This document shows positions 3,863 to 48,465 of a stretch of 64,000 nucleotides of DNA, one piece after another. The stretch lies in the NCBI GenBank assembly GCA_013112715.1, contig JABFGB010000030.1, forward strand, positions 4,126-68,125. Direction: 5' to 3'. The first letter of the stretch is position 1. Every line of letters begins with the position of its first letter. Origin of the DNA: Chloroflexota bacterium. GTDB lineage: Bacteria; Chloroflexota; Anaerolineae; Aggregatilineales; J027. The position numbers and the translations under genes were made by a program. The notes beneath the pieces are model-generated. The model was not told the origin of the DNA. It ran no database searches and saw only the letters and a list, made by a program, of their open reading frames with translations.

Positions 3863-4327
3863 TCAGTTCTCTTCGGGCCTAATGAAGTCGTACTCCAAAT
3901 GTCGGATCATTTCAAGACAATCTGTCTCAAGCCAGAGTCCCACTCCCGAGATGAACAGGTTGCCAGATCGTCTGAATAAGACGATGTCATCCCTATACTG
4001 TAAAATAACGTCCCCCGTATTGTTGCGCATGTATTTTAGGACATAGCCTAATAGGATAGGAAATATCTCTGTCAGTTCCGCGTCCCAAAATAAGCGAAAT
4101 GTAACCAAAATATCAGTGTTTATGTGCCAAAACTCTTCCCTGTAGTCTCCAAAGGCTCGAGACGATCTTTTTGTAAACACGGTACACCCGATGGCAGGCG
4201 CACTGAAATCTTCCTCGTCACGAAACTGGCCTATTTCTGAATCAACATCAAAATACTCTAGAATATCCCTTAGAATTGCGAGCGGGTCCAGTGGGGTAGA
4301 AATTCCCAGTTTGAAGCTAGTCGCCAT
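3863..4327 (-). CDS. SitI3-like immunity protein
   Basis: Start at 4327 behind a GGAGG RBS. N-terminal MATSFKLGISTPL and C-terminal VTFRL...GDVILQYRDDIVLFRRSGNLFIS...LW resemble the SitI3 family pattern as I recall it. Confidence 0.55.
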   Translation of the reverse strand: MATSFKLGISTPLDPLAILRDILEYFDVDSEIGQFRDEEDFSAPAIGCTVFTKRSSRAFGDYREEFWHINTDILVTFRLFWDAELTEIFPILLGYVLKYMRNNTGDVILQYRDDIVLFRRSGNLFISGVGLWLETDCLEMIRHLEYDFIRPEEN

Positions 4328-13729: not shown

Positions 13730-14101
13730 TCAACCTGAATGCCGCGTGCGGTGCAGCCACCGATGCAAAATATCGTACACCACCTCGGGGTCATGTTGGG
13801 CATAATAGGTAAAGTGCAGCCGCAAGCGATCATCCACCAAATCCAGATGATTGGTTCCAACCGATGTTTGCAGCAGCATTTTGGGCGTGTCCCACTGTTG
13901 CGCGACGACGGCCAGTGGCACTTTCGACCCAACCGACCATGTAGCCTTGCCGCCTTGAATCGAGGCCAGATACCCCGACTTGGCAATCAATGTGATAATA
14001 TCTTCAATGCTTAATCCATCGGGGATAATCATCGTTTGTTCATGCGGGGCATCCACATCATCACCTGCCGCCACACTGTCTCGCACCAGAAACACCAGCA
14101 T
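13730..14101 (-). CDS. Hypothetical protein
   Basis: 123-aa ORF with ggag RBS, in a run of minus-strand genes. Confidence 0.6.
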   Translation of the reverse strand: MLVFLVRDSVAAGDDVDAPHEQTMIIPDGLSIEDIITLIAKSGYLASIQGGKATWSVGSKVPLAVVAQQWDTPKMLLQTSVGTNHLDLVDDRLRLHFTYYAQHDPEVVYDILHRWLHRTRHSG

Positions 14102-14132
14102 CGCCTGAATCTCCCCTAAAAGAAAGCGTGAT

Positions 14133-14666
14133 CTAAAAGTCTAGGCGTAATGCCTCATGCGAGCCGGGTTCAATGCCCTGATTACGCCAATATTCGATAA
14201 TTTTCCAAGCGTCGGTTTCAACGGGCGCAAGATTCGGCGGACTGCCCAAATCCATCTCGCCTGTCTGATAATAGGCCGTTGCTGAAAATGCCTCGGCCAA
14301 TCGTGTAATCATCGTGAGATAAATGGTCAGGTGGTCAGGTGAATTTCTGAGAACACAGTAACTTAAACGAAATCCATCAAAAGGGCCGTGATGATGATAG
14401 ACATCTATACCGTCTACGAGCGGGAAAAGCCACACCAATACATCATCCCCAACATCAGGGTCATCAGACCGAAGCCCCCAGTAATCATCTACTTGGTCAA
14501 AGCCGAGTTCGGATAAGTCTTGGACTTCCATCTCAACTGGATGATAAGGATGATCAAACCCGCGCAGCATTTGGAATAATTGACCAAAAGTGGGTCGGAA
14601 TGTGGTACATATCAAATCCACATCCAAGCTTTCATAGATGGCCTCTTCGAATTGTTCTTCGTTCAT
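14133..14666 (-). CDS. Hypothetical acidic protein
   Basis: 177-aa ORF starting 10 bp after the DUF433 stop. Confidence 0.65.
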   Translation of the reverse strand: MNEEQFEEAIYESLDVDLICTTFRPTFGQLFQMLRGFDHPYHPVEMEVQDLSELGFDQVDDYWGLRSDDPDVGDDVLVWLFPLVDGIDVYHHHGPFDGFRLSYCVLRNSPDHLTIYLTMITRLAEAFSATAYYQTGEMDLGSPPNLAPVETDAWKIIEYWRNQGIEPGSHEALRLDF

Positions 14667-14676
14667 CTGCCCCTAC

Positions 14677-14973
14677 TTAGGTATTGTTTCGTTTCGCCTT
14701 CGCAATCAAGTCGGACAATAAGACACCATCAGCGGCATCAACGGGCGTTTCCATCTCGGCGTCCAATTCAGCCTGATGTTGATAATAATCGGCCAATGCC
14801 GCGTAAATTTTGGCATGATCTAGCACCTCATAATTTTCGAGAATCCATTCAATCGAAGAATGATTCCGTAGGTGCATCATAACCACTTCTGAAACGCGAA
14901 TCCGGGTTCCAGCGATACGCGGGATGCGCCGTCCCTGTTCTTCGGTAATTTCAATCAGATTGAGTGCCGCCAT
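14677..14973 (-). CDS. DUF433 protein
   Basis: PRIAGTRIRV...AKIYAALADYYQHQAELD. Confidence 0.85.
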   Translation of the reverse strand: MAALNLIEITEEQGRRIPRIAGTRIRVSEVVMMHLRNHSSIEWILENYEVLDHAKIYAALADYYQHQAELDAEMETPVDAADGVLLSDLIAKAKRNNT

Positions 14974-15075
14974 ATGATGATCCCACCCCAAACCTGTCCA
15001 CATCTCGTGGACATGGGTCTTGTAGCCGGGGAATTCTATTCCTCGGCTTCAAAAATAGCAAATTCAGAGACCCCC

Positions 15076-15106
15076 TTGACCCTCACGTTACGTCATGGTT
15101 TATCAT
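15076..15106 (+). promoter_or_regulatory. MerR-type promoter/operator (19-bp spacer)
   Basis: TTGACC-19 nt-TATCAT; spacer dyad CCTCACGTTACGTCATGG resembles the tipA operator. Confidence 0.85.
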
Positions 15107-15136
15107 CTTGGATGTATACGAATGAGGGAGTTCAAA

Positions 15137-15910
15137 ATGCTCACCGAGACCAAAACGGGTTACACCGTCAAGCAGTTAGCCGACCTCGCAGGCGTCAGCA
15201 TCCGCACCCTGCATTACTATGACGAAATCGGCCTCTTAAAGCCATCTTCGGTTGGCGACAATGGCTATCGCTATTACGAAGAGGAGGCGGTGTATCGCTT
15301 GCAGCAGATTCTATTTTTCCGGGAAATGGAATTGGGTCTGCTCCAAATCAAGGACATCATGGAGCAGCCGGAGTTCGACTTGATGATGACACTTGTCACG
15401 CATCGGCAGGCGCTGCAAGACAAAATCGCCCGTTTGCAGACCCTCATTCACACCATAGACCAGACGTTAGCACATCTCACAGGAGAGGTAGATATGACCA
15501 AGAAAAAACTCTTTGAGGGCTTCACCGAAGAAGAACAAGAACGGTACGCACAAGAGGCCAGCGAAAAATATGGCGCGGCAACCGTGCAAGCCTCCATGCA
15601 ATTGTGGAAGAGCTATGGCAAAGACAAGCAGGCCGCCATTATGCAGGAGGGCAAGGTCATCTATCAGGATATGCTAGCCGCGATGGGGCAGGGCGCGACG
15701 AGTGCGGGAGTTCAGGCGATTGTGGCGCGGTGGCATCAGCATTTGCGCTATTTCTATGAGCCGACCCCCGAAATTCTGCGCGGTCTGGGGCATCATTACA
15801 ACGATGATCCGGCTTTCCATGCCAATTTCGCCGACCTGCACCCCGATTTACCCGCGTTTTTGGAGCAGGCCATCATGCACTATTGTGATGTGCAGTTCCC
15901 GTCGGCGTAA
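15137..15910 (+). CDS. MerR family regulator with TipAS effector domain (TipA/Mta-like)
   Basis: YTVKQLADLAGVSIRTLHYYDEIGLL...NGYRYY; C-terminal Y.DDPAF. Confidence 0.93.
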   Translation: MLTETKTGYTVKQLADLAGVSIRTLHYYDEIGLLKPSSVGDNGYRYYEEEAVYRLQQILFFREMELGLLQIKDIMEQPEFDLMMTLVTHRQALQDKIARLQTLIHTIDQTLAHLTGEVDMTKKKLFEGFTEEEQERYAQEASEKYGAATVQASMQLWKSYGKDKQAAIMQEGKVIYQDMLAAMGQGATSAGVQAIVARWHQHLRYFYEPTPEILRGLGHHYNDDPAFHANFADLHPDLPAFLEQAIMHYCDVQFPSA

Positions 15911-15987
15911 TGGATGCGTGGGGTTTGCGGTGGGGATGGAACATAAACCCATTGTTCTGAAAAGCAACTGATTGTCCAAAGCTGGTG

Positions 15988-16953
15988 CTAGACGGTTTTC
16001 GCAATGGGGGTGCTGATCCCCTGCCACAATCGCCGCAGACCCCAAATCGTCACGAGGGCGACAAGGCTGAGTCCGCCGAACTGCTCAAAATCTTGCAGGA
16101 AGCCGAACACGATAAAAAACGCCAGCACCCCTGCGATAAAGGCCAATCTATGCCGATCATCCCACGCATAGCCATTACCCGACCAGCGCAAAATCAAGCC
16201 GAACATGAGCACGTCCAATATCACGATCCCGGCCAGCACGACGGGCCAATCGGGAAGCCATGCCGACTCGGTTTCCGGCAAGACAAACACCGCCAAAAAG
16301 ATGACGGTCATGTTGACGGCGGCCAATACGCCGTACCATAGGGGTCGGGTAGACGTGCCAGCGTGTTGGGGAAACACGGATTCCGGCCAATGTCGTGCCA
16401 AATACATCAAGCCGATGATAGCGCCACATGAAAATGCAAGGGCGGGGATAGTCGGAACAAAGGGATTCAGCAGCCATAGCGTGGGCATCCACAGCGCCAG
16501 CCCAATGAAACACCACGTCAACTGGCGATTATTGACCCACGACTCATGACGCCGACTCGGATAAATCAGATGAGCCAAGCCGATGCTGGCAAGGATGCTG
16601 ATGAGCACATGAAAATGCAACAGGACGGCGGCATATGTCCACGTCACGCCCTCCCAATACGAATAATCGCGGATTGCCCCCAGTTCGGCCCATTCCGGGT
16701 CCCACACCGAACGCGCCACGATAAATTCTTCATAGACCCCATAGGCCAGACCGAGCAAAATCAGACTGGGCCATTGCTTGCCCCAGCGAATCATGAGTTC
16801 ACGGCAGATAATCGCGCCGAAGCCATAGGGCAGAGAGGTTAAAAGAAATGCGAGGGGGTTGATGAACTCGAATAGGCTTTGATGCCCGGAGATAAGTTCG
16901 CCACAGATTGGCCCCAAAAATAACAGGGCCGTTGCTGGTGATATGCGTTTCAT
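15988..16953 (-). CDS. Multi-pass membrane protein of unknown function
   Basis: 321 aa with about 9 hydrophobic segments; ggagg RBS. Confidence 0.8.
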   Translation of the reverse strand: MKRISPATALLFLGPICGELISGHQSLFEFINPLAFLLTSLPYGFGAIICRELMIRWGKQWPSLILLGLAYGVYEEFIVARSVWDPEWAELGAIRDYSYWEGVTWTYAAVLLHFHVLISILASIGLAHLIYPSRRHESWVNNRQLTWCFIGLALWMPTLWLLNPFVPTIPALAFSCGAIIGLMYLARHWPESVFPQHAGTSTRPLWYGVLAAVNMTVIFLAVFVLPETESAWLPDWPVVLAGIVILDVLMFGLILRWSGNGYAWDDRHRLAFIAGVLAFFIVFGFLQDFEQFGGLSLVALVTIWGLRRLWQGISTPIAKTV

Positions 16954-17023
16954 AAGGTTGCCTCCCCACCCCTAACCGCTTTATATAGGATACGCAGCAA
17001 GGGTGGGGTGGTTGCGATTGGGG

Positions 17024-17341
17024 TTAGCCGGATTTGCGCCGTGCCCGCATTTCGGCGAGATGACTTTGAGCATCGGTGGCCCGTCGCTTGACATCGGCAT
17101 TCGTAGCCGCGATTTCGTCATCAATCTGGGTTTGATGCTCGTAGTAATAAGCCAGCGCCGCATGAATCTGGGCACGGGTTAGCGTGAAATTCTCCAAAAT
17201 CCAATCTATTGTCGCGTCGCCGTGCCCCACCATTTCGGCAATTTCGTGTACCGTGATTTTTGTGCCCGCTATGACCAATTTAGGTCGCCCAAACTCGTTT
17301 TCGATTTGTCCTAATAGGTTAATTGCAACGGGTCTCGCCAT
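17024..17341 (-). CDS. DUF433 protein (orphan)
   Basis: GRPKLVIAGTKITV...LTRAQIHAALAYYYEH. Confidence 0.88.
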   Translation of the reverse strand: MARPVAINLLGQIENEFGRPKLVIAGTKITVHEIAEMVGHGDATIDWILENFTLTRAQIHAALAYYYEHQTQIDDEIAATNADVKRRATDAQSHLAEMRARRKSG

Positions 17342-17457
17342 AAATCACCGTTTGTAGAATTTGCTTTCAAAACCCACCTCACCTCCAACCCCTCTGTCAC
17401 GTGAAAGGGGCTTTAATATGCCAGATTCTCCCCCTCGCCAGATGGAGAGGGGGCAGG

Positions 17458-17614
17458 AGGCTTGTCCGGCATTGGTGGAAATGGAATGAATAAGCGCAAT
17501 TGGCACGGCTTTGGTGTCCATTTCGTAGGGACGCAACCTGTTGCGTCCGTACCCAAAACCCTTTATCTATGCGGTTTCCTACCAATCACCCGAAATCGAA
17601 TACCGGACAAGCCT
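17458..17614 (+). mobile_element. MITE-A copy (157 bp) nested in a REP hairpin
   Basis: TIR aggcttgtccgg/ccggacaagcct; flanks cagg and ccgg; central GTAG hairpin. Confidence 0.8.
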
Positions 17615-17633
17615 CCGGGGGTGAGGTTGATTT

Positions 17634-18905
17634 TTACACCTCAAACGCCCATTCGCCACTGCGTAGCACGGGTTCGACACGCCCATCGGTGGTGATGCCG
17701 TCTACATCCATCTTGTCGGAGCCGATCATAAAGTCAATGTGAATCAGGCTGGTGTTGCCGCCTTCCGCCGCGAACTGCTCCTCGCTCATATCCTCGCCGC
17801 CCTCAATCGAAAACCGATAGGCCCGACCCAGCGCCAGATGATTCGAGGCGTTTTCGTCAATCAGGATGCTGTAAAACAGCCGTCCCGTTTTGGAAATCGG
17901 TGAACTGTGCGGCACAAGCGCGACCTCACCCAAGCTGCGTGCGCCCTCATCCGTGTTTAGAATCCCCGTCAGCAGTTCATTGCCCGTCTTGGCCGTCGAA
18001 TTGACCACGCGCCCATTTTCAAAATGTAGGCTGAAATTTTCGATCAGTGCCCCGCCATAATTCAGCGGTTTGGTCGCCGTGACCGTGCCGTCAATTTTGT
18101 CGCGGTGCGGCATCGAGAACACTTCTTCGGTGGGGATGTTGGCGGTAAATCGAATGCCATTCCGCGCCATCATCTGTGCCCCTTGCCAGACCTGCCCCTG
18201 TGGTAAGCCGACGCGCAAATCCGTGCCCGGTGCTTGATAATGCAGGGCCGCGTACTGCTTGCCATTTAAATAGGCCGCCCGCGCCAGCAGATTTTTGACA
18301 TGGGCCTGCCACGCCGCGATGGGGTCGGGCTGGTCAATTCGGCACAGGGCGAAGAGGGTCTCCCAGAAAGCGTCTTCACGGCGTCCCGGCTCGACATCGG
18401 GGAACAATTTATCGCTCCAACCGGGCACGGGGGCGGTCACGACACACCAATTCATATCGCCCTTCGCCACCTTATCAGAATAATCTCGGCGTGTTTGGAG
18501 GGCCGTCTTTTGCACTTTGGAGATCAATTCGGGGTCGTGGCCCTTCATCATATCGGGGTCAACCGCCGAAATGGTCAGGATGGCGTCGGCGCGATTGGCA
18601 TATTCCATCAGGGCCGTCGCCAACCAATCGTTATGCAGGTCAAACGAGTCACGCGGGGCATATTTGAAACGGGCCAAGCGCACTTCGGGGTCATCCCACA
18701 GCACATCCACAAAGACCGCCCCGGCTTGATAGGCCGCCCGCACACATTCGCGCACAAGGGGGGCTTGATAAATCGGCGCACCCACTTGGGAGATCGTCGG
18801 CGTCCCGATCAACACGCGCTGACCGGGTTGGACATTCAGGCCGATTCGGATAATCACATCGGCATATTTGGCAAGTTTCTCTTGAAAATTGGGAATCGAG
18901 GACAT
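17634..18905 (-). CDS. ampS: Aminopeptidase, M29 (AmpS/PepS) family
   Basis: NIPTEEVF, LGEVALV, DENASNHLALG, HIDFMIG. Confidence 0.95.
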   Translation of the reverse strand: MSSIPNFQEKLAKYADVIIRIGLNVQPGQRVLIGTPTISQVGAPIYQAPLVRECVRAAYQAGAVFVDVLWDDPEVRLARFKYAPRDSFDLHNDWLATALMEYANRADAILTISAVDPDMMKGHDPELISKVQKTALQTRRDYSDKVAKGDMNWCVVTAPVPGWSDKLFPDVEPGRREDAFWETLFALCRIDQPDPIAAWQAHVKNLLARAAYLNGKQYAALHYQAPGTDLRVGLPQGQVWQGAQMMARNGIRFTANIPTEEVFSMPHRDKIDGTVTATKPLNYGGALIENFSLHFENGRVVNSTAKTGNELLTGILNTDEGARSLGEVALVPHSSPISKTGRLFYSILIDENASNHLALGRAYRFSIEGGEDMSEEQFAAEGGNTSLIHIDFMIGSDKMDVDGITTDGRVEPVLRSGEWAFEV

Positions 18906-18940
18906 GGGGAATCCTTAATTTGATGCAGAATCGCGTTTTG

Positions 18941-18987
18941 GATTATACCGCAGGTGGGGCGGGGGAGGTTCAAATGAGAGGGCAGGT
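18941..18987. repeat. 47-bp direct repeat, copy 1
   Basis: gattataccgcaggtggggcgggggaggttcaaatgagagggcaggt. Confidence 0.9.
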
Positions 18988-18989
18988 AG

Positions 18990-19994
18990 TTATCCCTCAG
19001 GTGCAGAACGGGTAGGCATGAGGATAACCTGCGTCGTCAGTACAGCCCCATTAACTCCCGGATAGGTGATACTTCTTCCATCAGGCGCAATATCAATTGA
19101 AAGCGCCCTCAGTTGTGTATCGAGGAGATAGGGTGTCATTTCGAGTTCACGATTCTGAACCCACACAACGCCATCATTGGTTGATGCTGCGATGATTTCA
19201 TTGTTTAGCTCTACGTCGAACACTACAAAACTACCTGTCTCGACAGTCGTAATCTCATTGGTTAAGTAGTTCCAGAAAAGAAATTTTCCCCTAACGTCTG
19301 GAAATACTACGGTTGTGCTGTCCTCAAGCCAATTAATGTCTTTTACGTAATCTCCAACTTTTAGCGAGTTGATTTGATCGCCAGATGGATAATCCCATAT
19401 ATGGATCATATAATCAAAGCCACCACTGGCAAGTTTGCTGCCATCAGGACTCCATTCCAGAACTGAGATGGTATCGGCGTGGGCCTTTTGGAATGCATCG
19501 AAGTTATCCCAAGAGGACGTGTTCCAAAACAAAATATCTTTACCTGCCGCAGATGCCAACACAGCAAGTTCCGGGTTTGGGTTCCAGTTTAGCGGAATCT
19601 CATTTTCACCCCCTGCGGCACTTACTTGATCCTCAAGGATTTCAAAGTCGGGGATACTTAAAATCAAAACCTGCCCTCTGGTGTTATCGCTCGCTGCCAA
19701 GAACTCGCTATTCGGACTCCAAGCAATTGCGCTAACTTGGCTTCCGTCTCGATGTGTGACCTCATCCCCATCTTTGTCGTATAGCCATAGCCCATTATTA
19801 CGGCCCACCGCCAGATAATCCCCAGATGGACTCCAAGCGATTTCCAATACCATTATTGGCACTTGTTTGGATAAAAGCCCATCATGAGATTCATCTGCCG
19901 TTTCATTTGAGTAAACTTTGCCTGTTAGGGTTATTGCGGATACACAAATGGAAAACAAAATAGCAAGGTAAACTGCCTGTTGCACCGTTTTCAT
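18990..19994 (-). CDS. Secreted WD40-repeat protein
   Basis: N-terminal signal or TM; AWSPSG, AWSPNS, HADTISVLEWSPDGSKLASGGFD...IHIWD. Confidence 0.88.
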   Translation of the reverse strand: MKTVQQAVYLAILFSICVSAITLTGKVYSNETADESHDGLLSKQVPIMVLEIAWSPSGDYLAVGRNNGLWLYDKDGDEVTHRDGSQVSAIAWSPNSEFLAASDNTRGQVLILSIPDFEILEDQVSAAGGENEIPLNWNPNPELAVLASAAGKDILFWNTSSWDNFDAFQKAHADTISVLEWSPDGSKLASGGFDYMIHIWDYPSGDQINSLKVGDYVKDINWLEDSTTVVFPDVRGKFLFWNYLTNEITTVETGSFVVFDVELNNEIIAASTNDGVVWVQNRELEMTPYLLDTQLRALSIDIAPDGRSITYPGVNGAVLTTQVILMPTRSAPEG

Positions 19995-20075
19995 AACAAC
20001 CTTACTTTTTTGAGTCAGAATTGAACCAACCCATCATCAAGATATTCAAGGCAGATGACGGGATTCAATTTGTGA

Positions 20076-20122
20076 GATTATACCGCAGGTTGGGCGGGGG
20101 AGGTTCAAATGAGTGGGCAGGT
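20076..20122. repeat. 47-bp direct repeat, copy 2
   Basis: 45/47 identical to copy 1. Confidence 0.9.
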
Positions 20123-20215
20123 GGGTGTAATGGCCCTCGACATCGTAGATGAAAACGTATAGGTACAAAAAGGCGTTATCCCTCATTGTAGGGAAGTAGA
20201 TTGATGACTGGATTT

Positions 20216-20839
20216 CTATAGTACGATATGTATATCTTTGTTTGAGAAAAGAATGGCAACTCTATCGCCCGGCAAAAATTCTTTGTGAACTGACGTCACG
20301 TATCTACCCTCAATCTGTTGATCCATTGAAGGCAATATGAATTTATAGAAAATTGCCTGACTTTGCTCATTTAGCTTTTCGACTCGCGCAATTTCACCGA
20401 ATGCCAGTTTGCCCATTTTGGCAAGCGTATCGTAGGCTTCAGCCGTGCTCATCGCGTATTTTGCCAATAAGTAAATGTGCAGCATATATCTATAGCCGAC
20501 CATGATTCCGACGATTCCGGCAAATAGCAATACAACCATCATGCTGATATCTGAAATATGTTCTTTCCAATGCGGTAGTAAATCGATAATTGTGCCTAAT
20601 GACGCGACAATTGACACTCCCCCGGCAACTAATCCAAATAAACCAATTGTGAGGCCTCCTATCATCACAAAACTATTACAGCCACCGAGTGCCGAGGCGG
20701 GTACACCGAGTTTGAGGCGCAAATTGTAATAAACCTCACGCCGTCTATCCAATCCCCCCGGCTTTCGTTGTATAAAATGCTTGTTTCTTCCACTTATAAG
20801 ATTCACATGCTGAGTTTCTTTAGAACGATTGAATATCAT
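20216..20839 (-). CDS. Hypothetical membrane protein (2 TM)
   Basis: 207-aa low-GC ORF with two hydrophobic helices; ggag RBS. Confidence 0.7.
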   Translation of the reverse strand: MIFNRSKETQHVNLISGRNKHFIQRKPGGLDRRREVYYNLRLKLGVPASALGGCNSFVMIGGLTIGLFGLVAGGVSIVASLGTIIDLLPHWKEHISDISMMVVLLFAGIVGIMVGYRYMLHIYLLAKYAMSTAEAYDTLAKMGKLAFGEIARVEKLNEQSQAIFYKFILPSMDQQIEGRYVTSVHKEFLPGDRVAILFSNKDIHIVL

Positions 20840-21019
20840 ATAACCTGATCTCCAAAGAACATGCCTGATCTTTTAGGTTGTCCGCCGAGGCACGTCGTCA
20901 AAATGTGAGGTACACAGGCGACCAGATTGATCGAGAAACCTGCCCTAAAGCGCTTCCAATCGGCAGATTATCGCAGCGCGAGAGTTGGATACCCCGTGCC
21001 CTCCGAAAGAGTGTTAGAA

Positions 21020-21053
21020 ATTATATCGCAGGTGGGGCGGGGGAGGTTCAAAT
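21020..21053. repeat. Direct repeat, copy 3 (34-bp core)
   Basis: 33/34 identical to 18942-18975. Confidence 0.85.
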
Positions 21054-21107
21054 AGGGCAAATCGAGAAAGTTTTGTTCTTGTATTGTCTAGCTGTAACTT
21101 ATGGGCG

Positions 21108-21140
21108 AAAAACAAGTAGCCCAAAAGCGAGGGGCTACCA
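21108..21140 (-). terminator. Probable terminator of the DUF6941-hicAB operon
   Basis: Minus strand gtagccc-ctcgctttt-gggctac followed by ttgttttt. Confidence 0.55.
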
Positions 21141-21174
21141 TCAAGAGCCTTTACCCGATAATCTCATAACTAAC

Positions 21175-21552
21175 TTAGAGGCTTGTAGTCGCTTTGTCCT
21201 CTAATAGTTCCAAGAAAGAATGACTTGACTCATCCACAATTGAAATCATGCCTTCTGCAAAGCTAAATGTGCTTGTCTGGACATTTATGGTCATTTCTCT
21301 ATCTAATGCTTGACTAGCAGGTTCTGGGACGCTTAACCCATCCTCAAGCAGAAAATAGATATAGTCAATTCGGGCATTCGCCAAATTAGCCTTTGCTTCT
21401 TCAGGCGTCTCCCCGTCAGATTTACAACCCGGCAACTCAGGGTTATATGCAACAAATACATAGCTACCATCGCTCAATTCTTCGCGTGATGTGAGCGTTG
21501 TATATCTGCGTTGGGCCAGTTGTTCGGCCTGCTGTAGAAGTGCGTTATTCAT
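21175..21552 (-). CDS. hicB: HicB family antitoxin
   Basis: VAYNPELPGCKSDGETPEEAKANL...GLSVPEP. Confidence 0.9.
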   Translation of the reverse strand: MNNALLQQAEQLAQRRYTTLTSREELSDGSYVFVAYNPELPGCKSDGETPEEAKANLANARIDYIYFLLEDGLSVPEPASQALDREMTINVQTSTFSFAEGMISIVDESSHSFLELLEDKATTSL

Positions 21553-21814
21553 CAGAATCCTCGTTTGTTTCCAATTCTAGCAGTATTTCAATGATTTTTA
21601 GCGTCTCACTTGCATATGATTTTGGCAATTCTTTGGCGTGTCTAGGCAGAGTGTATCTGAGTTGTGGATAATCTGGATGTTTCACTATATCGTGACTTTT
21701 ACCTGCTACAACGGTAAAACCGAAACTCTCATATAACTCTTTTAGTTCTTTGGCGTGCCATCCCGCTTTGCTTCGTCGGAGTTTTTCTAATAGCTTCTCC
21801 CCCTTGGTTGGCAT
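21545..21814 (-). CDS. hicA: HicA family toxin
   Basis: LYESFGF...GKSHDIVKHP...TLPRH; 8-bp overlap with hicB. Confidence 0.85.
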   Translation of the reverse strand: MPTKGEKLLEKLRRSKAGWHAKELKELYESFGFTVVAGKSHDIVKHPDYPQLRYTLPRHAKELPKSYASETLKIIEILLELETNEDSDE

Positions 21815-21818
21815 GATT

Positions 21819-22238
21819 TCAAGCCTCGTCTCGTGGGGGAAGCTCTTTTACTTCTATTTTTGCGACTGCTTTGTAATCTTTATCAACAAAAAGCCTTAGC
21901 TCGTAACTGCCGGGCCTTTCAAATGGAAAATCTCGTAAGGCTGTTATAAAGTTCATTTCTGAAGTTTGCCCAAATTTCGGAGATGGCACATTAAATGGGC
22001 GATCAACCGACATTAGCTGCTTTCCATCGGGATCAAACAACTTGTAGACAAGATTTCTATCTTCGCCAAACTCGCCCCAATCAAAGACAACCTTTGTCAC
22101 TATATATAGTTGTGGATGGATAGCCGGAAAGGTCTTCGCAAAAATGCTATCGAAGATGCCAAGAATATTTAGTTTTCCGCTGTTATCTATATTTGCGAAA
22201 TCTGCGGTCAAGAATACCTTGATTTCCAATTTGTGCAT
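21819..22238 (-). CDS. DUF6941-like protein
   Basis: LTADFANIDNSGKLNILGIFD.I.A..FP..H, C-terminal F.RPG.Y...L. Confidence 0.75.
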   Translation of the reverse strand: MHKLEIKVFLTADFANIDNSGKLNILGIFDSIFAKTFPAIHPQLYIVTKVVFDWGEFGEDRNLVYKLFDPDGKQLMSVDRPFNVPSPKFGQTSEMNFITALRDFPFERPGSYELRLFVDKDYKAVAKIEVKELPPRDEA

Positions 22239-22484
22239 CCTGTGTATATGTTTTAACTATTAAAGTGCTTCCATATCTTACCACACAAGGTATGGAATTT
22301 ATCTTATTATAATCTATACTCGTCATCGGACTCTTTCACTTGCTCTTGTCGCCCGACTCATACGACATATGGTTAGAGAGACTGACGTCGCGTATAACTG
22401 AAACCCTGTACACTCAAAAATCGAATGTGCGATAATAACGCAGTGGAGGGAGGGGGATTATTCCATACGGAGGGGCAACGAACT

Positions 22485-23315
22485 ATGAGCTTTACGCAAG
22501 ACGACATCACGCGCAGTGGGTATAGACTGCCAACAGCGCCGCCGGATTCGTGGCGCACCTATGATGAACGGAATCCAATCCCCGGCTACTTCGAATTTGA
22601 TTGGTTGAGCAGCCGCCACCCCGATCTGTATCACCAATTCGCCTTATCCACCGTCGGTCTGATGAATAAACTGCACACGCTCTTTGACCTGACGGGGTGT
22701 GATGTCGTGGATATTGGGGCAGGCACAGGCCGATCCGCGATGGAGGCAGCAAAAAAGGCCAAGCGGGTGTTTGCCGTTGACCTCTATGAATCGGTGGTAG
22801 CGTTTGGCAGAAACGCACTCCAAAAAATCGGCGTGACCAATGTCCATTATGTAATCGGAGATCGGGAACATTTGCCATTGGCGGAAAACAGCGTGGACGT
22901 GGCGATTAACGCTTGGGCGGAGCTAAATCCACACGAGGCGTATCGCGTCATAAAACCGAATGGGTATCTCATTCAAATGGGGGCTACTCTGGAGGCGTTA
23001 TGTGGCGAAATCACCGCCGAACTCGCCCCCGATTACGAATGGATTCCCCAAGTAGTTGCGCCCGCCGAAGTCTATGCCCCAGACTATCCCGACGCGCATT
23101 GTACGGCGGACAACTCGATTTGGGGCGGTATCCCGGTGAATGGCCCAATCCATGTCCATCAGTTTACCTATGTGGCGGACTATGGCGATTACACCGAATT
23201 GGCCGCTATCACCGGACGGCTGTATGGCTCAAAAGCGAAATGTTATTTTTTGACCAAGCAGCAGGCCACCTTTGCATGGCGCTTACAGTTGATGATTGGG
23301 CAGGTCAGCAAATAG
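22485..23315 (+). CDS. Class I SAM-dependent methyltransferase
   Basis: VVDIGAGTG, AVD, GD.EHLPL.ENSVD. Confidence 0.9.
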   Translation: MSFTQDDITRSGYRLPTAPPDSWRTYDERNPIPGYFEFDWLSSRHPDLYHQFALSTVGLMNKLHTLFDLTGCDVVDIGAGTGRSAMEAAKKAKRVFAVDLYESVVAFGRNALQKIGVTNVHYVIGDREHLPLAENSVDVAINAWAELNPHEAYRVIKPNGYLIQMGATLEALCGEITAELAPDYEWIPQVVAPAEVYAPDYPDAHCTADNSIWGGIPVNGPIHVHQFTYVADYGDYTELAAITGRLYGSKAKCYFLTKQQATFAWRLQLMIGQVSK

Positions 23316-23338
23316 GCCAGCCCGATCATGGCTGCCCA

Positions 23339-23575
23339 TTAGGATTCCCACGCGGGATACCAGTCGTCACTTTCGCGTAGGGCTTCGTGGACTCTGGTCG
23401 AAGCGACCCGCACAAAACGCCATAGAGCCTTGCCGCCTGTTTGGGGATGCGAGGGGAAATTTTCGCCTGCATAAAACATCAAGACCACATCGGCCTCACT
23501 GTCACGCGGTTCAACATCATTACGATTGCCCAACAGCTGATATTGGCCCGTCTCTGGCACGAACTCGCCGGACAT
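23339..23575 (-). CDS. Small hypothetical protein (YjzC-like GE..PE.G.Y start)
   Basis: MSGEFVPETGQY...; start at 23575. Confidence 0.5.
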   Translation of the reverse strand: MSGEFVPETGQYQLLGNRNDVEPRDSEADVVLMFYAGENFPSHPQTGGKALWRFVRVASTRVHEALRESDDWYPAWES

Positions 23576-23827
23576 AAAGATGCCACCTAAGGTTTCCATT
23601 GGATGCAACCTCTCTGTCGTTGGTCATTCCCCAATAGTCTACAAAAAGGTGGGCATCAACTAGAGGGTCGGTTGGACTGGCTTGGCATGGGTCAGGTGGC
23701 GCATATTTTGGATGATTTGAAAATCGGATGGGCGATTGACCGTAGGCAGTGGGGTGGCGGGTTCGATAGATAGTATAAGGTTGTGGTAAACTGAGGGGCA
23801 GCGAATTCTGATGAGGAATAGTGCGCG

Positions 23828-24055
23828 ATGATGGATTACAGCCACCTGATTACTCTTGAACCGGGCAAGCGATCTGGCAAACCGTGTATTCGAGGTTTGC
23901 GGATTACCGTTTATGACGTGCTTTCCTACCTTGCCAGCGGAATGACGATTGATGAAGTCCTAAGCGATTTTCCTAGCCTGACCCGCGAGGATATTTTGGC
24001 CTGCCTGAGCTACGCTGCTGATCGGGAACGACATACGCTGATCGTCAGATCATGA
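23828..24055 (+). CDS. DUF433 antitoxin
   Basis: GKRSGKPCIRGLRITVYDVL..LASGM; ATGA overlap with DUF5615. Confidence 0.92.
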   Translation: MMDYSHLITLEPGKRSGKPCIRGLRITVYDVLSYLASGMTIDEVLSDFPSLTREDILACLSYAADRERHTLIVRS

Positions 24056-24384
24056 AACTGCTGCTCGACCATAATTTGTCACCGAAATTGGTGACGCGAC
24101 TGGCAGAATTGTATCCAGAATCTAACCATGTGGCGATGCTTGGATTAGATACGGCTTCTGATGTCGAAGTCTGGCGGCACGCTCTAGATCAAGGTTATTG
24201 TCTGGTCACAAAGGATTCGGACTTTAACGAACTGCTCACCGCTAAAGGGTTTCCACCAAAAGTCATTTGGATTCGTTTAGGCAACTGTACAACCAGCGCC
24301 ATCGAAAATCTGCTCCATAAACATCTCAAAACCATTCTTGAATTTGCAGAAGATACTTCAGTTGGGTTGTTGGAACTCCAGTAA
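24052..24384 (+). CDS. DUF5615 PIN-like toxin
   Basis: MKLLLDHNL...SD.EVW..A...LVTKDSDF...PPKVIWIR.GN. Confidence 0.92.
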   Translation: MKLLLDHNLSPKLVTRLAELYPESNHVAMLGLDTASDVEVWRHALDQGYCLVTKDSDFNELLTAKGFPPKVIWIRLGNCTTSAIENLLHKHLKTILEFAEDTSVGLLELQ

Positions 24385-24429
24385 TAGACTTTTTCTCAAT
24401 AATATTGCTGATGAGCGGGGAAAGTCAGC

Positions 24430-24798
24430 GTGCGCCAGCGATTTTTGATTGATACCGTCGAAGCCTTTCCGATGGGGCAGGGGGTTGCCGTCACGGTCAA
24501 TGGCAAATCGCTGCTGATTATCCATACCGCCGCCGCCGGGTTTTTTGCGGTACTCAATCACTGTCCGCATATGGGGTTACGTTTGGATAATGGGACGGTG
24601 GTCGGGAAGGTGCTGGTGTGTTTGTGGCATGGCGCACAATTTGATTTATCAACGGGGGCCTGTTTGCGCTGGGCCGCCAATGAACCACCCCCCGAAGCGA
24701 TTGGCGAAACCCGCCGCCCCTTAATCACGTTTCCCGTCATCGTCGAGGATGGGCAGGTGTTTGTGGAGATGGAGGCTGTGGCATCGGAATCGGAATAG
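24430..24798 (+). CDS. Rieske (2Fe-2S) ferredoxin
   Basis: CPH...CLWHGAQF; GTG start. Confidence 0.9.
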   Translation: MRQRFLIDTVEAFPMGQGVAVTVNGKSLLIIHTAAAGFFAVLNHCPHMGLRLDNGTVVGKVLVCLWHGAQFDLSTGACLRWAANEPPPEAIGETRRPLITFPVIVEDGQVFVEMEAVASESE

Positions 24799-24860
24799 AC
24801 AGGCCGGTCATCTGATATTGGTACATCTGAAACGCCTATAGACGTAAAGCCGGATTTTCT
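24790..24860 (-). pseudogene. Diverged duplicate of the 3' end of the GNAT gene at 25520-25999
   Basis: Reads ENPALRL*AFQMYQYQMT versus NNPARHLYEQTGFQMYQYQMS; exact 22-bp repeat at 24808-24829 and 25540-25561. Confidence 0.7.
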
Positions 24861-25254
24861 ACCAAATGATTTGCAACCCAGCGAGTCGAATTCTTCCATC
24901 ACGGCTAATGAGTGGGAGATTAAGATGAAGTGCTGTTGCGGCGATAATACGGTCTGACATATCCGGGATTTTGACCACATCTACTTTGGAGAGCGTCCGC
25001 GAAATCGCTAGGGTCAATGGAATTTCGACAAATGTTTGGACTTCGAGAATATGGGCCGTCCGACTGAGGGTTTCTGCGGGGATTCGGCCTTTTTCAATGA
25101 GGTAGACCAGTTCAACAAAGGTAATGGCAGCTAACCCAATAGATTCACCACGTTGGGCTGCTGCTGAGATAAACCTCTGAGCCGTAACAGATAGACGAGG
25201 GCTACCCGTGAGATACCAAATCAAAATATGCGTATCGGCGACTCCGGCAATCAT
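24859..25254 (-). CDS. vapC: VapC-like PIN toxin
   Basis: VADTHILIWY, ITFVEL, DMSDRIIAATA, LISRD. Confidence 0.9.
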   Translation of the reverse strand: MIAGVADTHILIWYLTGSPRLSVTAQRFISAAAQRGESIGLAAITFVELVYLIEKGRIPAETLSRTAHILEVQTFVEIPLTLAISRTLSKVDVVKIPDMSDRIIAATALHLNLPLISRDGRIRLAGLQIIW

Positions 25255-25493
25255 TCAAACATATCCTCGCGGGGGAAATTTGCCCAAACGTCGCGGCGCA
25301 CGGCATCAATATCCTCTTCGGAAATGTCGAAACCCAAATCGGCCCAACTACCATAGAGGTCGGGCAGCGGTTTTCGCGTCTGCCCCTGTAGATTCTGCCC
25401 CATTGCATTGACGATACGGCTCACCAATTTAGCTTGATCTTCCGGCGACAATTGCAGGGCTTCATGCACCAATTCCTCAAAAGTAACAGTCAT
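25251..25493 (-). CDS. Antitoxin of the PIN toxin
   Basis: 80 aa, ATGA overlap, LYGSWADL...SEEDID..R. Confidence 0.8.
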   Translation of the reverse strand: MTVTFEELVHEALQLSPEDQAKLVSRIVNAMGQNLQGQTRKPLPDLYGSWADLGFDISEEDIDAVRRDVWANFPREDMFE

Positions 25494-25519
25494 TGTGGTC
25501 TGCCTCCTTTTCTATGATT

Positions 25520-25999
25520 TTACAATATTATTGGACGGCTCATCTGATATTGGTACATCTGGAACCCCGTCTGTTCATACAGATGGCGGGCCGGGTTATT
25601 GACCAAGACATTCAATTCCGCCAGATCACAGCCATGTTCCCGTCCCCACGCTAGCGCGGATTCCATCAACTGCTGCCCAATCCCCTGACGGCGAACGCTT
25701 TCATCCACATAGATGCCATGAATGTGCAGAATCCAACGCGGCTCGAACACGCCGCCCATTTCAATAATAGACGCCTCCGTCACGCCCACGATACCATCAT
25801 CCAATGCGGCCACCTGATAACAGAAGGTGTCGCGGGCAAGGCGTTCGCGGATACGGGTCTGAAACAAATCTACCACCGTTGCGAAAGGGGCGGCACGAAA
25901 GCCTCCCATCTGTTCCATTGCCTGCACCATCGCGGCGAGGCGTTGGGCAACGGCAGGTATATCATCAGGGGTGGCAGGTCGGATGAGCAGGTCGGGCAT
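25520..25999 (-). CDS. GNAT family N-acetyltransferase
   Basis: IHGIYVDESVRRQGIG, NNPARHLYEQTGF. Confidence 0.9.
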   Translation of the reverse strand: MPDLLIRPATPDDIPAVAQRLAAMVQAMEQMGGFRAAPFATVVDLFQTRIRERLARDTFCYQVAALDDGIVGVTEASIIEMGGVFEPRWILHIHGIYVDESVRRQGIGQQLMESALAWGREHGCDLAELNVLVNNPARHLYEQTGFQMYQYQMSRPIIL

Positions 26000-26120
26000 T
26001 CATCTATCTCCATGAAATTGATGCGTCCAATTTCCGGCTGATTATAGCGTCACATTCATTTGCCCGTATCCGCCACTTTTGATAGCATGGACTCAATACT
26101 CACCTTTTCCTGCAAAGAGG

Positions 26121-26636
26121 CTGATGATGCTGGATACTGACCTCGCCCACGTATTCGGATTTGATCAAGACGACCTAACCCACAATCAGCAGGGGCGGCT
26201 CTCCCCCAAACAAAGCCGATTCCTCAAGAATGCCAGTAAGTCCTGTATGGTGTTTTCCGGCGGGTTCACCCTCGTGATGTTGGTGCTAAGTGTCATCATC
26301 GTGGGACTCGGCGCGGATGTGGAGACGGCCATGCCGCTCATCGCGTTTACGATGGTGGGGGCGGGTTTTCTAGTCTGGGCATGGAGCAGTCGCTATGAGG
26401 TCTATTTAATACAACACGCCGAGGGCACAGCCCAACTGCGCACGGATCGGATTGAAGGGGCACAAACGCGCCATGTGCTGAATGTGGATGGGTACGAGTT
26501 CACGATTAATGGGGTGCAATATCATGCGCTCAATCAAGGGGCTGCCTATAAAGTGCATTATGCCATGCTGAAAAAATATCAGCCGTACCCCAAAACCAGC
26601 CCCAAACTGATTGTGTCTATTGAGCATCACGGATAA
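26121..26636 (+). CDS. Hypothetical membrane protein (2 TM)
   Basis: N.QGRLS..Q motif, two helices; start uncertain (26079, 26121 or 26124). Confidence 0.65.
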   Translation: MMMLDTDLAHVFGFDQDDLTHNQQGRLSPKQSRFLKNASKSCMVFSGGFTLVMLVLSVIIVGLGADVETAMPLIAFTMVGAGFLVWAWSSRYEVYLIQHAEGTAQLRTDRIEGAQTRHVLNVDGYEFTINGVQYHALNQGAAYKVHYAMLKKYQPYPKTSPKLIVSIEHHG

Positions 26637-26748
26637 AGCGTCGGCAAGGCCCACCAATCATTTGGCTCTTATAGAAAATCTGTTCTTGAACATTTGCCGC
26701 CGAATGCCTATAATCAGCCTAAATCATAGCCAATTCGGAGGATGCCCC

Positions 26749-27021
26749 ATGTGCCGCAACATCAAAACCCTCTACAACTTTGAGCCACCTGTAACCGAGG
26801 ACGAAATCCACGCCGCCGCCCTGCAATATGTCCGCAAAATCACGGGCTTTAACAAACCCTCCAAAACCAACGAGGTCGCGTTTAACACTGCCGTTGCCGC
26901 GATTGCTGGCCTCTCGCGTGAACTCTTGGCCTCACTGGAAACAAACGCCCCGCCGAAAAATCGAGAAATCGAAGCCGCCAAAGCCCGCATCCGTGCCGCC
27001 GAACGTTTTGGCAGTTCCTAA
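26749..27021 (+). CDS. DUF2277 family protein
   Basis: MCRNIKTL.NFEPP.T..EI.AAALQYVRK..G. Confidence 0.9.
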   Translation: MCRNIKTLYNFEPPVTEDEIHAAALQYVRKITGFNKPSKTNEVAFNTAVAAIAGLSRELLASLETNAPPKNREIEAAKARIRAAERFGSS

Positions 27022-46307: not shown

Positions 46308-46464
46308 ACGCTTGGCCGATATTGGTGGAAATCGCATGAATAAGCAGGGCTGGGTTGACGGCAATAGTGGTTTCGTAGGGACGCAACATGTTGCGTCCGT
46401 ACTCAAAACCCCGTCACCATGCGATTTCCTAAGCATCACGGACAATCGAATATCGGACAAGCCT
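46308..46464 (+). mobile_element. MITE-A copy (157 bp)
   Basis: acgcttggccgatatt...aatatcggacaagcct; central GTAG hairpin. Confidence 0.78.
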
Positions 46465-48127: not shown

Positions 48128-48174
48128 CAATACGACTTTCTTTCTCCCTCATCGTTTCCGGGGCAGGGGGCCGG

Positions 48175-48465
48175 GGGCTTGTCTGACATTGGTGGAAATC
48201 GCATGAATAAGCGGGACTTGGTTAGCCACACCATTGGTTTCGTAGGGACGCAACATGTTGCGTCCGTACCCAAGACCCTTTATCTATGCGATTTTCTACA
48301 AATCACCGTCAAGCGAATACCGGACAAGCCTCCGGGGGCTTGTCTGACATTGGTGGAAATCGCATGAATAAGCGGGACTTGGTTAGCCACACCATTGGTT
48401 TCGTAGGGACGCAACATGTTGCGCCCGTACTCAAAACCCAGTCGCCATGCGGTTTCCTAAGCCCC
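48175..48465 (+). mobile_element. Tandem MITE-A pair (48175-48331 complete, 48336 onward truncated) joined by ccgg
   Basis: Near-identical first ~100 bp of both units; junction ggacaagcct-ccgg-gggcttgtc. Confidence 0.85.

Follow-up and report, generated by a model that had tools for sequence, protein, structure and literature searches.

How do different single genes come to be stacked at one chromosomal site, each behind a copy of the same promoter-like segment? The question is raised by a locus in a stretch of 64,000 nucleotides (nt), referred to below as the window (positions 4,126 to 68,125 of contig JABFGB010000030.1, assembly GCA_013112715.1), from a Chloroflexota bacterium of the Anaerolineae (Aggregatilineales, J027). 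The putative promoter segment that precedes the aminopeptidase gene ampS, a repeat named H in this study, is present there in three copies (c1, c2, and c3), and each of the two intervals holds one open reading frame (ORF). To our knowledge, the stacking of single genes at one expression site is well understood for integrons only, and the origin of small accessory islets in integron-free cells is largely unexplained. Comparison of strain variants of the locus makes it moderately probable that small single-gene cassettes are gained, lost, and exchanged here by recombination within the promoter-embedded H.

The source genome (G000) is a metagenome-assembled genome (MAG) of 5.55 Mb in 76 contigs (C-numbers), among which the array contig, C30, is 80.9 kb long. 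It was compared with the other five species of the genus (G001-G005) and with further locus versions and contigs (L-numbers), many of them from Logan assemblies of sequencing runs. The array has the order H-2TM-H-WD40-H-ampS, with one minus-strand ORF in each interval, and its units are named WD40 (cassette 1), 2-TM (cassette 2, two transmembrane segments), and X (the cassette of L085). Its parts are the following.

17634-18905, minus strand: ampS, M29 aminopeptidase of 423 aa, GC 0.573 (Pfam PF02073, E 1e-152)
18941-18987, minus strand: c1, the reference copy, 36-82 nt 5′ of the ampS ATG; coding strand ACCTGCCCTCTCATTTGAACCTCCCCCGCCCCACCTGCGGTATAATC
18988-20075, minus strand: cassette 1, an 82-nt leader plus the WD40 ORF, GC 0.449; its stop codon lies 2 nt from c1
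18990-19994, minus strand: WD40 beta-propeller ORF of 334 aa with an N-terminal hydrophobic signal or anchor, GC 0.455
20076-20122, minus strand: c2, 45/47 identical to c1, 82 nt 5′ of the WD40 ATG and 93 nt 3′ of the 2-TM stop
20123-21018, minus strand: cassette 2, a 179-nt leader plus the 2-TM ORF plus a 93-nt tail, GC 0.44
20216-20839, minus strand: 2-TM ORF of 207 aa with two hydrophobic segments, GC 0.42
21019-21065, minus strand: c3, 33/34 identical to c1 in the core, 179 nt 5′ of the 2-TM ATG and approximately 110 nt 3′ of hicB

A repeat search of the window recovered the three copies in direct orientation at spacings of 1135 and 943 bp, reproducing the spacings and identities given in a preliminary description of this DNA. 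Relative to c1, c3 carries the variant GCGATATAATT; the two are 74% identical over 47 nt, a value that becomes 44/47 once a distal 3-nt deletion is taken into account. Two further statements of that description were confirmed: all three copies terminate in TATAAT, followed by C or T, on the minus (coding) strand, and each interval contains one ORF of low GC content (the secreted WD40 protein and the 2-TM protein) in a window whose overall value is 0.529. With up to three mismatches, the 33-nt core matched at three places in the window, against 0.00 expected from shuffled sequences, and a 27-nt core occurs only at these three places in the whole 5.55-Mb genome, elsewhere in which blastn-short found no further copy. 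H is a locus-unique sequence and not a dispersed element. A scan of GTDB genomes for the repeat returned only a contig of G004 (JAIOHL010000255.1, an Anaerolineae MAG), and the exact pattern had no match in JGI metagenome contigs.

The copies lack recognizable secondary structure. No hairpin exceeded shuffled controls in any of the three copies on either strand (minimum free energy -1.6 to -5.6 kcal/mol, z -1.1 to 0.0), which agrees with the earlier statement that an attC-like dyad is absent; the repeat search of the window revealed no inverted repeats at the copies, and the repeat matched no Rfam family. A tRNA-like target was considered because GGTTCAAAT resembles a T-loop, and was rejected since neither ARAGORN nor Rfam reported a match and no complementary stem is present. 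A putative fourth copy at the right GC boundary (22430-22462; approximately 22/29 with one gap by eye) was likewise rejected as background: 110 of 221,854 genome windows are equally good, and its Smith-Waterman score of 23 compares with 24-25 elsewhere in the window.

About ten independent versions of the locus were obtained from ampS orthologues, cluster members, and their contigs. The 35-nt core (ATTTGAAC...TATAATC) and the same 35-nt leader stand before every ampS orthologue that is at least 92% identical. Upstream of ampS, these versions contain one, two, or three copies of H with different cassettes, and the content of the locus is not identical among relatives. The comparison of upstream regions proposed in the preliminary description was positive, and neither of the two conditions that it named as refuting, a dispersed repeat and identical content among relatives, applies. 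One copy is present in seven lineages with ampS at least 92% identical (G004, L078, L080-82, L084, L086, and L087), whose neighbours are unrelated. The large neighbours of single copies, including that of the more distant L079, are listed here; pairwise comparison of the five detected no homology among them.

G004, one H: neighbour is a 476-aa lipoprotein
L078, one H: neighbour is a 494-aa WD40-like protein
L080-82, one H: neighbour is an 814-aa protein
L084, one H: neighbour is an 821-aa protein plus a methyltransferase
L079 (ampS 74%), one H: neighbour is an 811-aa protein

Two copies were identified in L085, which has a different cassette, and in L089, which has the 2-TM cassette. Three copies are found in G000 and its near-identical assemblies, the same array being present in GCA_016860965.1 and in Logan contigs of SRR7904081, SRR10579387, and SRR7904087 with 0-1 mismatches over 3-13 kb.

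L085 (SRR19543874) represents the exchange of one cassette content for another. Its identity to the window is 98.7% over the stretch that runs from 28898 to the final base of the c3 TATAAT (21020), and 98.0% beyond 18976, where the c1 core starts. The unrelated 704-bp segment that separates these stretches, X (GC 0.41, with an 86-aa ORF), replaces the 2-TM cassette, c2, and the WD40 cassette. The 150 nt before c3 are identical in L085 and the window, and c3 itself differs at 4 of 36 nt (P ~0.001 at the divergence of the flanks); this clustering of differences beside an identical stretch indicates recombination inside the repeat.

The second informative pair consists of L089 and G004. The 2.7-kb contig L089 (SRR13988011) contains, in order, the end of an 89-aa ORF, a 475-aa gene (87% identical to that of G004), a repeat copy H(A), the 2-TM cassette, and a second copy H(B) at the end of the contig. 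Its cassette is 96% identical in DNA to window positions 21057-20140, and 204 of 207 residues of the protein are identical. G004 has the same left flank, a single H, and no cassette, and represents an empty site. Alignment of these sites (alignment A1) gave the following borders.

G004 single site: left CCCTATCCTCCCA, right GCGGTATAATC
L089 H(A): left CCCTATCCTCCCC, resident type; right GCGATATAATC, cassette type, like window c3
L089 H(B): left ACCTGCCCTCCC, cassette type, like window c2 and c1; right GCGGTA, resident type

H(A) joins the resident left flank CCCTATCCTCCCC to the cassette-type GCGATATAAT. In the cassette-type version of the repeat, H′ (ACCTGCCCNCNCATTTGAACC...), the left part is ACCTGCCC(T/A)C(T/C)C, which in the window also precedes c2 and c1. 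The two copies of L089 have the composition that would be expected of reciprocal attL/attR hybrids produced by one crossover within the core, and the flanking direct repeats resemble those of integrative elements in being hybrids of attB and attP types (L089 against G004, and c3 and c2). The insertion of cassettes at a promoter-embedded site, as suggested in the preliminary description, is supported by this pair of empty and occupied sites and by the hybrid repeats; its view of ampS as the host gene at that site does not hold, since ampS, too, is accessory and moves as a module together with H.

In all four units (ampS, WD40, 2-TM, and X), unit-specific sequence begins directly after TATAAT(C/T), and the upstream edge of H, at 36-47 nt, differs among units. 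WD40, 2-TM, and X are ORFans seen only at the ampS locus; for WD40, the best other match among 5.8 billion proteins is 25% identical. A paralogue of the 2-TM protein on C17 (33% aa identity) and a paralogue of HicAB on C12 both lack flanking repeats. PADLOC and PHROGs gave no hint of the function of the cassette cargo, and the repeat search revealed no terminal inverted repeats on the cassettes. The cassette flanks share no homology except for the 11-mer GTTATCCCTCA. Close to its 3′ end, each cassette has an identical copy of this 11-mer, at 18989-18999 (+2 after c1, overlapping the WD40 stop) and at 20175-20185 (+53 after c2); with an uncorrected p of ~0.01, the match may be due to chance.

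H contains promoter-like hexamers. Its -10 hexamer, TATAAT, is perfect, and a -35-like hexamer, TTGAAC, agrees with the consensus at 5/6 positions; the two are separated by a C-rich spacer of 20 nt, and both hexamers and their spacing are retained in ampS orthologues down to 92% identity. In sigma-70 promoters, the -35 and -10 hexamers are spaced 16-18 nt apart and transcription starts approximately 7 nt downstream. A simple sigma-70 consensus scan does not list H as a promoter because the hexamers are 20 nt apart. Every copy of H may serve as the promoter of its unit, judging from these motifs. In L057 (SRR7904083, corresponding to window 18757-20096), a contig that stops inside c2, a T-to-C change converts the -10 box of c1 from TATAAT to TGTAAT on the coding strand.

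The anchor of the array appears to be mobile as well. Similarity of L086 (631-1997) and L087 (177-1536) to the window is confined to 18982 and 18975, respectively, down to 17617 (93.5-93.9% identical), a span that comprises H, the leader, ampS, and 17 nt and is flanked in both contigs by DNA without similarity to the window. Judged from these borders, H plus ampS behaves as a discrete transferable single-gene module, and its occurrence in two genomic contexts means that ampS is not a fixed host gene. The preliminary description had placed c1 upstream of a housekeeping aminopeptidase; the position was correct, but ampS is not a housekeeping gene here, being absent from four of the five other species of the genus, with only G000 and G004 having it. 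An ampS-based search for related loci in metagenomes returned 0 loci.

Seven Logan contigs with ampS (L092-L097 and L083) begin inside H or at its edge, 51-94 nt before the ATG, and most of them end at a miniature inverted-repeat transposable element (MITE), which suggests branch points at H in the assembly graphs of those samples. Contig breaks at H in ampS contigs of the G004 type are compatible with population heterogeneity or with repeat-induced graph breaks.

Recombination in H could explain this series as follows. A cassette would exist at least transiently as a circle of ~0.7-1.1 kb bearing its own copy of H. One reciprocal crossover within the ~25-35-nt identical core, between the H of the circle and a chromosomal H, would insert it in the manner of a Campbell integration and leave one H on each side, and the reverse reaction would delete the cassette. 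Because H ends directly behind its -10 box TATAAT and short of the expected start site, the newcomer would be placed behind a complete promoter copy, in the same direction of transcription as ampS, which would keep its own promoter. Repeated events would yield the array H-2TM-H-WD40-H-ampS. The reaction might be performed by the host RecA acting on short homology or by one of the recombinases encoded in trans, and we infer the circular intermediate, the enzyme, and the promoter activity alike.

Co-occurring recombinases, for which a search had been suggested earlier, are present in the genome, where nine tyrosine (PF00589, Phage_integrase) and seven serine (Resolvase) recombinases were identified; none is encoded near the array. 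The observation that the window lacks a recombinase extends to the whole 80.9-kb contig C30, on which the Phage_integrase and Resolvase profiles had no match, and neither an integrase nor a fragment of one was found at the locus in about ten strain variants. RecA can use homology as short as that of H at low frequency. RecA, with ~35 bp of identity as its substrate, and a dedicated recombinase are equally possible, and the fixed TATAAT boundary together with the repeated use of one site would be better explained by a recombinase acting in trans.

Several points weigh against cassette exchange in H. No recombinase is encoded on the contig and H has no inverted binding arms; its upstream edge varies between 36 and 47 nt, a variation that a precise site-specific enzyme does not require. 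The circle is deduced, and Logan contigs drop rare variants and junctions. Three of the four cassette types are ORFans confined to this locus, and there is therefore no case of movement between unrelated sites. The pattern formed by L089 and the window could also result from a homologous swap upstream of an inherited array, and with L089 and G004 only 87% identical, insertion and deletion are not distinguishable. Moreover, the 20-nt spacing of the -35 and -10 hexamers is atypical, and the consensus scan made no call.

A more specific version of this reading holds that H is recognized by a dedicated recombinase encoded in trans, which would capture promoterless DNA of ORF size immediately behind a -10 box, and that two duplications elsewhere in the genus, at a patatin-like gene and at ruvX (described below), were made by the same machinery. 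The fixed boundary after TATAAT speaks for such an enzyme and the variable upstream edge of H against it, and we regard this version as possible though doubtful.

The alternative that survives best after that is turnover of a flexible island, in which the region upstream of ampS was swapped by double crossover in long conserved flanks, and the internal copies of H are one or two old local promoter duplications, or products of gene conversion, that were inherited and mark conservation boundaries only. It would account for the single-copy lineages, with their unrelated neighbours and no second repeat, for breakpoints that always fall at the limit of a selected promoter block, and for the wholly accessory nature of the 13-kb neighbourhood (14000-27000), which within the genus occurs only in G000 and G004. 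It leaves unexplained, however, the reciprocal hybrids and the 2-TM cassette with a repeat on both sides in two backgrounds, the c3-clustered differences between strains that are 98.7% identical, and the common start of all units after TATAAT. In our view, island turnover is unlikely to be the origin of the array.

Insertions of a similar kind elsewhere in the lineage, above all at the patatin-like gene and at ruvX, speak for cassette exchange, and they bear also on the next alternative. The genome was scanned for local direct repeats around single low-GC genes, and several other loci were identified at which such genes are bracketed by copies of host sequence, 33 to ~100 bp long and unrelated to each other in sequence; not all low-GC islets have repeats. 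The clearest case is a patatin-like gene (C12:142852-143788; L020 501-1437), where a 251-aa multi-transmembrane ORF with flanks of only 26 and 14 nt follows a 72-bp piece of the gene 3′ end; behind the insert, this piece is repeated, and the original tail of the gene comes next as an orphan. G000 and G001 have the insert, the latter with two identical 72-bp copies; G002-G005 have an uninterrupted one-copy gene, and TAATG translational coupling is kept. The 3′ end of ruvX (~98 nt) is a recurrent site, occupied at C18:121562-122612 (L060) in G000 and at L064 in G005 and single in G001 and G003. In G000, an orphan ruvX end stands after an 83-aa and PIN toxin-antitoxin pair, and its identity to the live end decreases along its length (100, 80, and 60%); in G005, a DUF433-like and DUF5615-like toxin-antitoxin pair lies between two 98-nt copies (94/98).

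At C2:199552-200421 (L021), both borders of a slot are formed by a 33-nt repeat with TATAAT at its end, together with a leader hairpin that has a T-run. This slot contains a 237-aa low-GC gene in G000, G001, G004, and G005; in G003 it is filled by other DNA, and in G002, where the copies are 183 bp apart, it is empty. C2 is a second promoter-repeat slot, older than that of ampS. At C20:78102-78768, the last 68 nt of a 446-aa gene recur after a 181-aa low-GC ORF, to which the following gene (184 aa) is distantly paralogous; two cassettes may be arrayed here at the 3′ end of a gene. For a locus on C10, relatives lack the left flank, which prevented the definition of an empty site. Local direct repeats on C24, C33, C37, and C16 were considered as insertion scars and rejected as tandem paralogues, and repeats at window positions 46310 and 48177 (C30 50435 and 52302), first taken for an insertion duplication, are copies of a 180-bp MITE. 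A dispersed hairpin of ~33 nt, CACGGGGCTAAAGCCGCCGTGCTGAATCTAG, whose 8-bp stem has a single bulged base (for example C2:199619-199651, C15:132177, C21:55227, and C23:12817), occurs in very large numbers throughout the six genomes of the genus and adjoins some cassette borders. The clustered regularly interspaced short palindromic repeats (CRISPR) array at C3:250-7200, with ~100 units of the repeat GTTTCAATTCCTCGTTCGGAATAGGGCCTCATTAAAC, is unrelated to H.

Such loci could also have arisen by a long target-site duplication that involves no circle: foreign DNA would be captured at a staggered double-strand break or by template switching during replication, and fill-in would duplicate 35-100 bp. 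At H, such switching might occur in the G/C-rich promoter spacer, whose template strand (GGTGGGGCGGGGGAGG) has the potential to fold into a G-quadruplex, and selection would keep those events that duplicate a promoter or a gene end, in which the host gene survives. The unrelated duplications of 33 to ~100 bp around single low-GC genes are in line with this, as are the 72-bp patatin copies of G001, identical as if fresh, and the lack of a nearby recombinase. The L089 hybrids, on the other hand, need a cassette-borne copy with its own left part (ACCTGCCC...), which the WD40 cassette shares; the same cassette stands between both repeats in two backgrounds, and the identity gradient of the orphan ruvX end fits a heterologous cassette-borne copy, not a fresh duplication. 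We therefore consider a circle-free duplication rather improbable for the ampS array.

Still less probable is that the units are relics of integrase-bearing islands that integrated in tandem at one att site and decayed to one gene each, similar to cis-mobilizable elements (CIMEs). Tandem att repeats from successive integrations are documented (PMC3146451), as are integrase-less att-flanked relics (in ICE/IME reviews), and the genome encodes 16 tyrosine and serine recombinases. Against such decay stand four units that each consist of just a leader, an ORF, and a tail of at most 100 nt with intact repeats on both sides, the want of integrase fragments in the strain variants, and cassettes at other loci with flanks of only 6-26 nt.

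An assembly artefact, in which alternative strain haplotypes were joined through the shared short repeat, is effectively excluded, for although the source is a MAG of 76 contigs and breaks inside H occur in several Logan contigs, the order and the copy-specific single-nucleotide polymorphisms agree among five assemblies, which come from at least two studies and were made with different assemblers, and the copies share exact runs of at most 27 nt, so that k=31 graphs resolve them.

The array was also compared with known systems. Integrons consist of the tyrosine recombinase gene intI, the attI site, and the promoter Pc, and their attC sites are imperfect inverted repeats that fold with extrahelical bases. 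Like integron cassettes, the units described here are co-oriented, mostly single-ORF segments of ~0.5-1 kb at one promoter-side site; content differs between close strains, which have one, two, or three copies; many cassettes are ORFans or toxin-antitoxin genes; and circular intermediates, accepted for integrons, are presumed here. Unlike in integrons, no intI adjoins the array, either on C30 or in the strain variants, near-identical direct copies of the target stand between cassettes in place of attC hairpins, each cassette has its own copy of the putative promoter instead of a shared Pc, and the anchor gene ampS is itself accessory.

Repeated att copies from successive integrations have been described for the ssrA islands of Dehalococcoides (PMC3146451) and for tycheposon arrays in Prochlorococcus (10.1101/2020.12.28.424599). 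In tandem accretion and CIMEs (the ICESt1/St3 family, ssrA islands, and tycheposons), Campbell integrations leave target repeats between elements, and integrase-less elements persist and can be moved in trans, as might apply here. Their targets, however, are tRNA, tmRNA, or protein gene 3′ ends and not a promoter, and the elements span kilobases to tens of kilobases and normally have an integrase, whereas the units at H have one ORF each and no integrase in any strain variant.

The pdif modules of Acinetobacter are also small, lack a recombinase, have short conserved border sites, and are shuffled between replicons by the host enzyme XerC/XerD (PMC6449649, PMC13141974). In contrast to their 28-bp XerC-spacer-XerD dyads, which alternate in orientation and occur on plasmids, H is a direct repeat of 35-47 bp without a dyad. 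H also lacks the conserved second arm of a Xer (pdif/IMEX) site, because the sequence after TATAAT(C/T) is unit-specific. A Xer site measures 28 bp, with XerC and XerD arms around a 6-8-bp spacer. The sequence TGCGGTATAA is weakly similar to a XerC arm. Transposons and MITEs do not fit either, as there are no terminal inverted repeats, the repeat is locus-unique, and the duplication measures 35-47 bp. A CRISPR array offers a formal analogy, in that fixed-end insertion duplicates the repeat and yields repeat-insert-repeat, but the inserts at H are genes of 0.7-1.1 kb (spacing 943 and 1135 bp) and not spacers of 30-40 bp, and no cas genes lie nearby. CRISPR arrays typically combine regular repeats of 25-40 bp with spacers of 25-45 bp.

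The array is a member of neither the integrons nor the tandem-accretion elements. What would be new is the capture of cassettes at a duplicated att site in which a promoter serves as the att site. Whether the mechanism is undescribed, as had been proposed, is uncertain because the idea has known relatives in integrase-less att-flanked elements and in modules that depend on Xer.

The features that surround the array are listed below.

17443-17629, no strand assigned: MITE-like element of ~180 bp with 18-nt inverted arms at 17456-17473 and 17599-17616
21066-22430, minus strand: low-GC block DUF6941-HicA-HicB, upstream of c3; also in strain L085
21175-21552, minus strand: HicB, part of the low-GC block
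21545-21814, minus strand: HicA, part of the low-GC block
21819-22238, minus strand: DUF6941, part of the low-GC block
22485-23315, plus strand: class I S-adenosylmethionine (SAM) methyltransferase, divergent; right neighbour of the variable region

The MITE-like element abuts the 3′ boundary of the ampS module and recurs in the window at ~46310-46460 and ~48165-48460; G000 and G004 contain dozens of copies, the other congeners few. No demonstrable fourth repeat bounds the DUF6941-HicA-HicB block. The methyltransferase is present in L084 and L085 and absent in G004 and L080. Its start is the ATG at 22485 (276 aa), not that at 22425, and TGTACA-18-GATAAT with an upstream TG at 22407-22436 on the plus strand is a plausible promoter for it, which overlaps the rejected fourth-copy candidate at 22430-22462.

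The locus provides a natural series of an empty site and of sites with one or two cassettes, in which one cassette recurs in two backgrounds and one slot is filled by different cassettes. With the promoter itself as the recombination site, acquisition and expression of a gene would be solved in one step, and the resident gene would not be silenced. If a dedicated recombinase recognizes H, this would represent promoter-att gene capture in Chloroflexota, distinct from integrons in having no attC, no linked integrase, and a promoter for each cassette, and the enzyme would be a new gene-capture tool, possibly useful for site-directed insertion that supplies a promoter. If RecA acts on ~35 bp instead, short duplications of promoters or gene ends would turn any locus into a self-renewing cassette slot, which would help to explain the many single-gene low-GC islets in Chloroflexota genomes.

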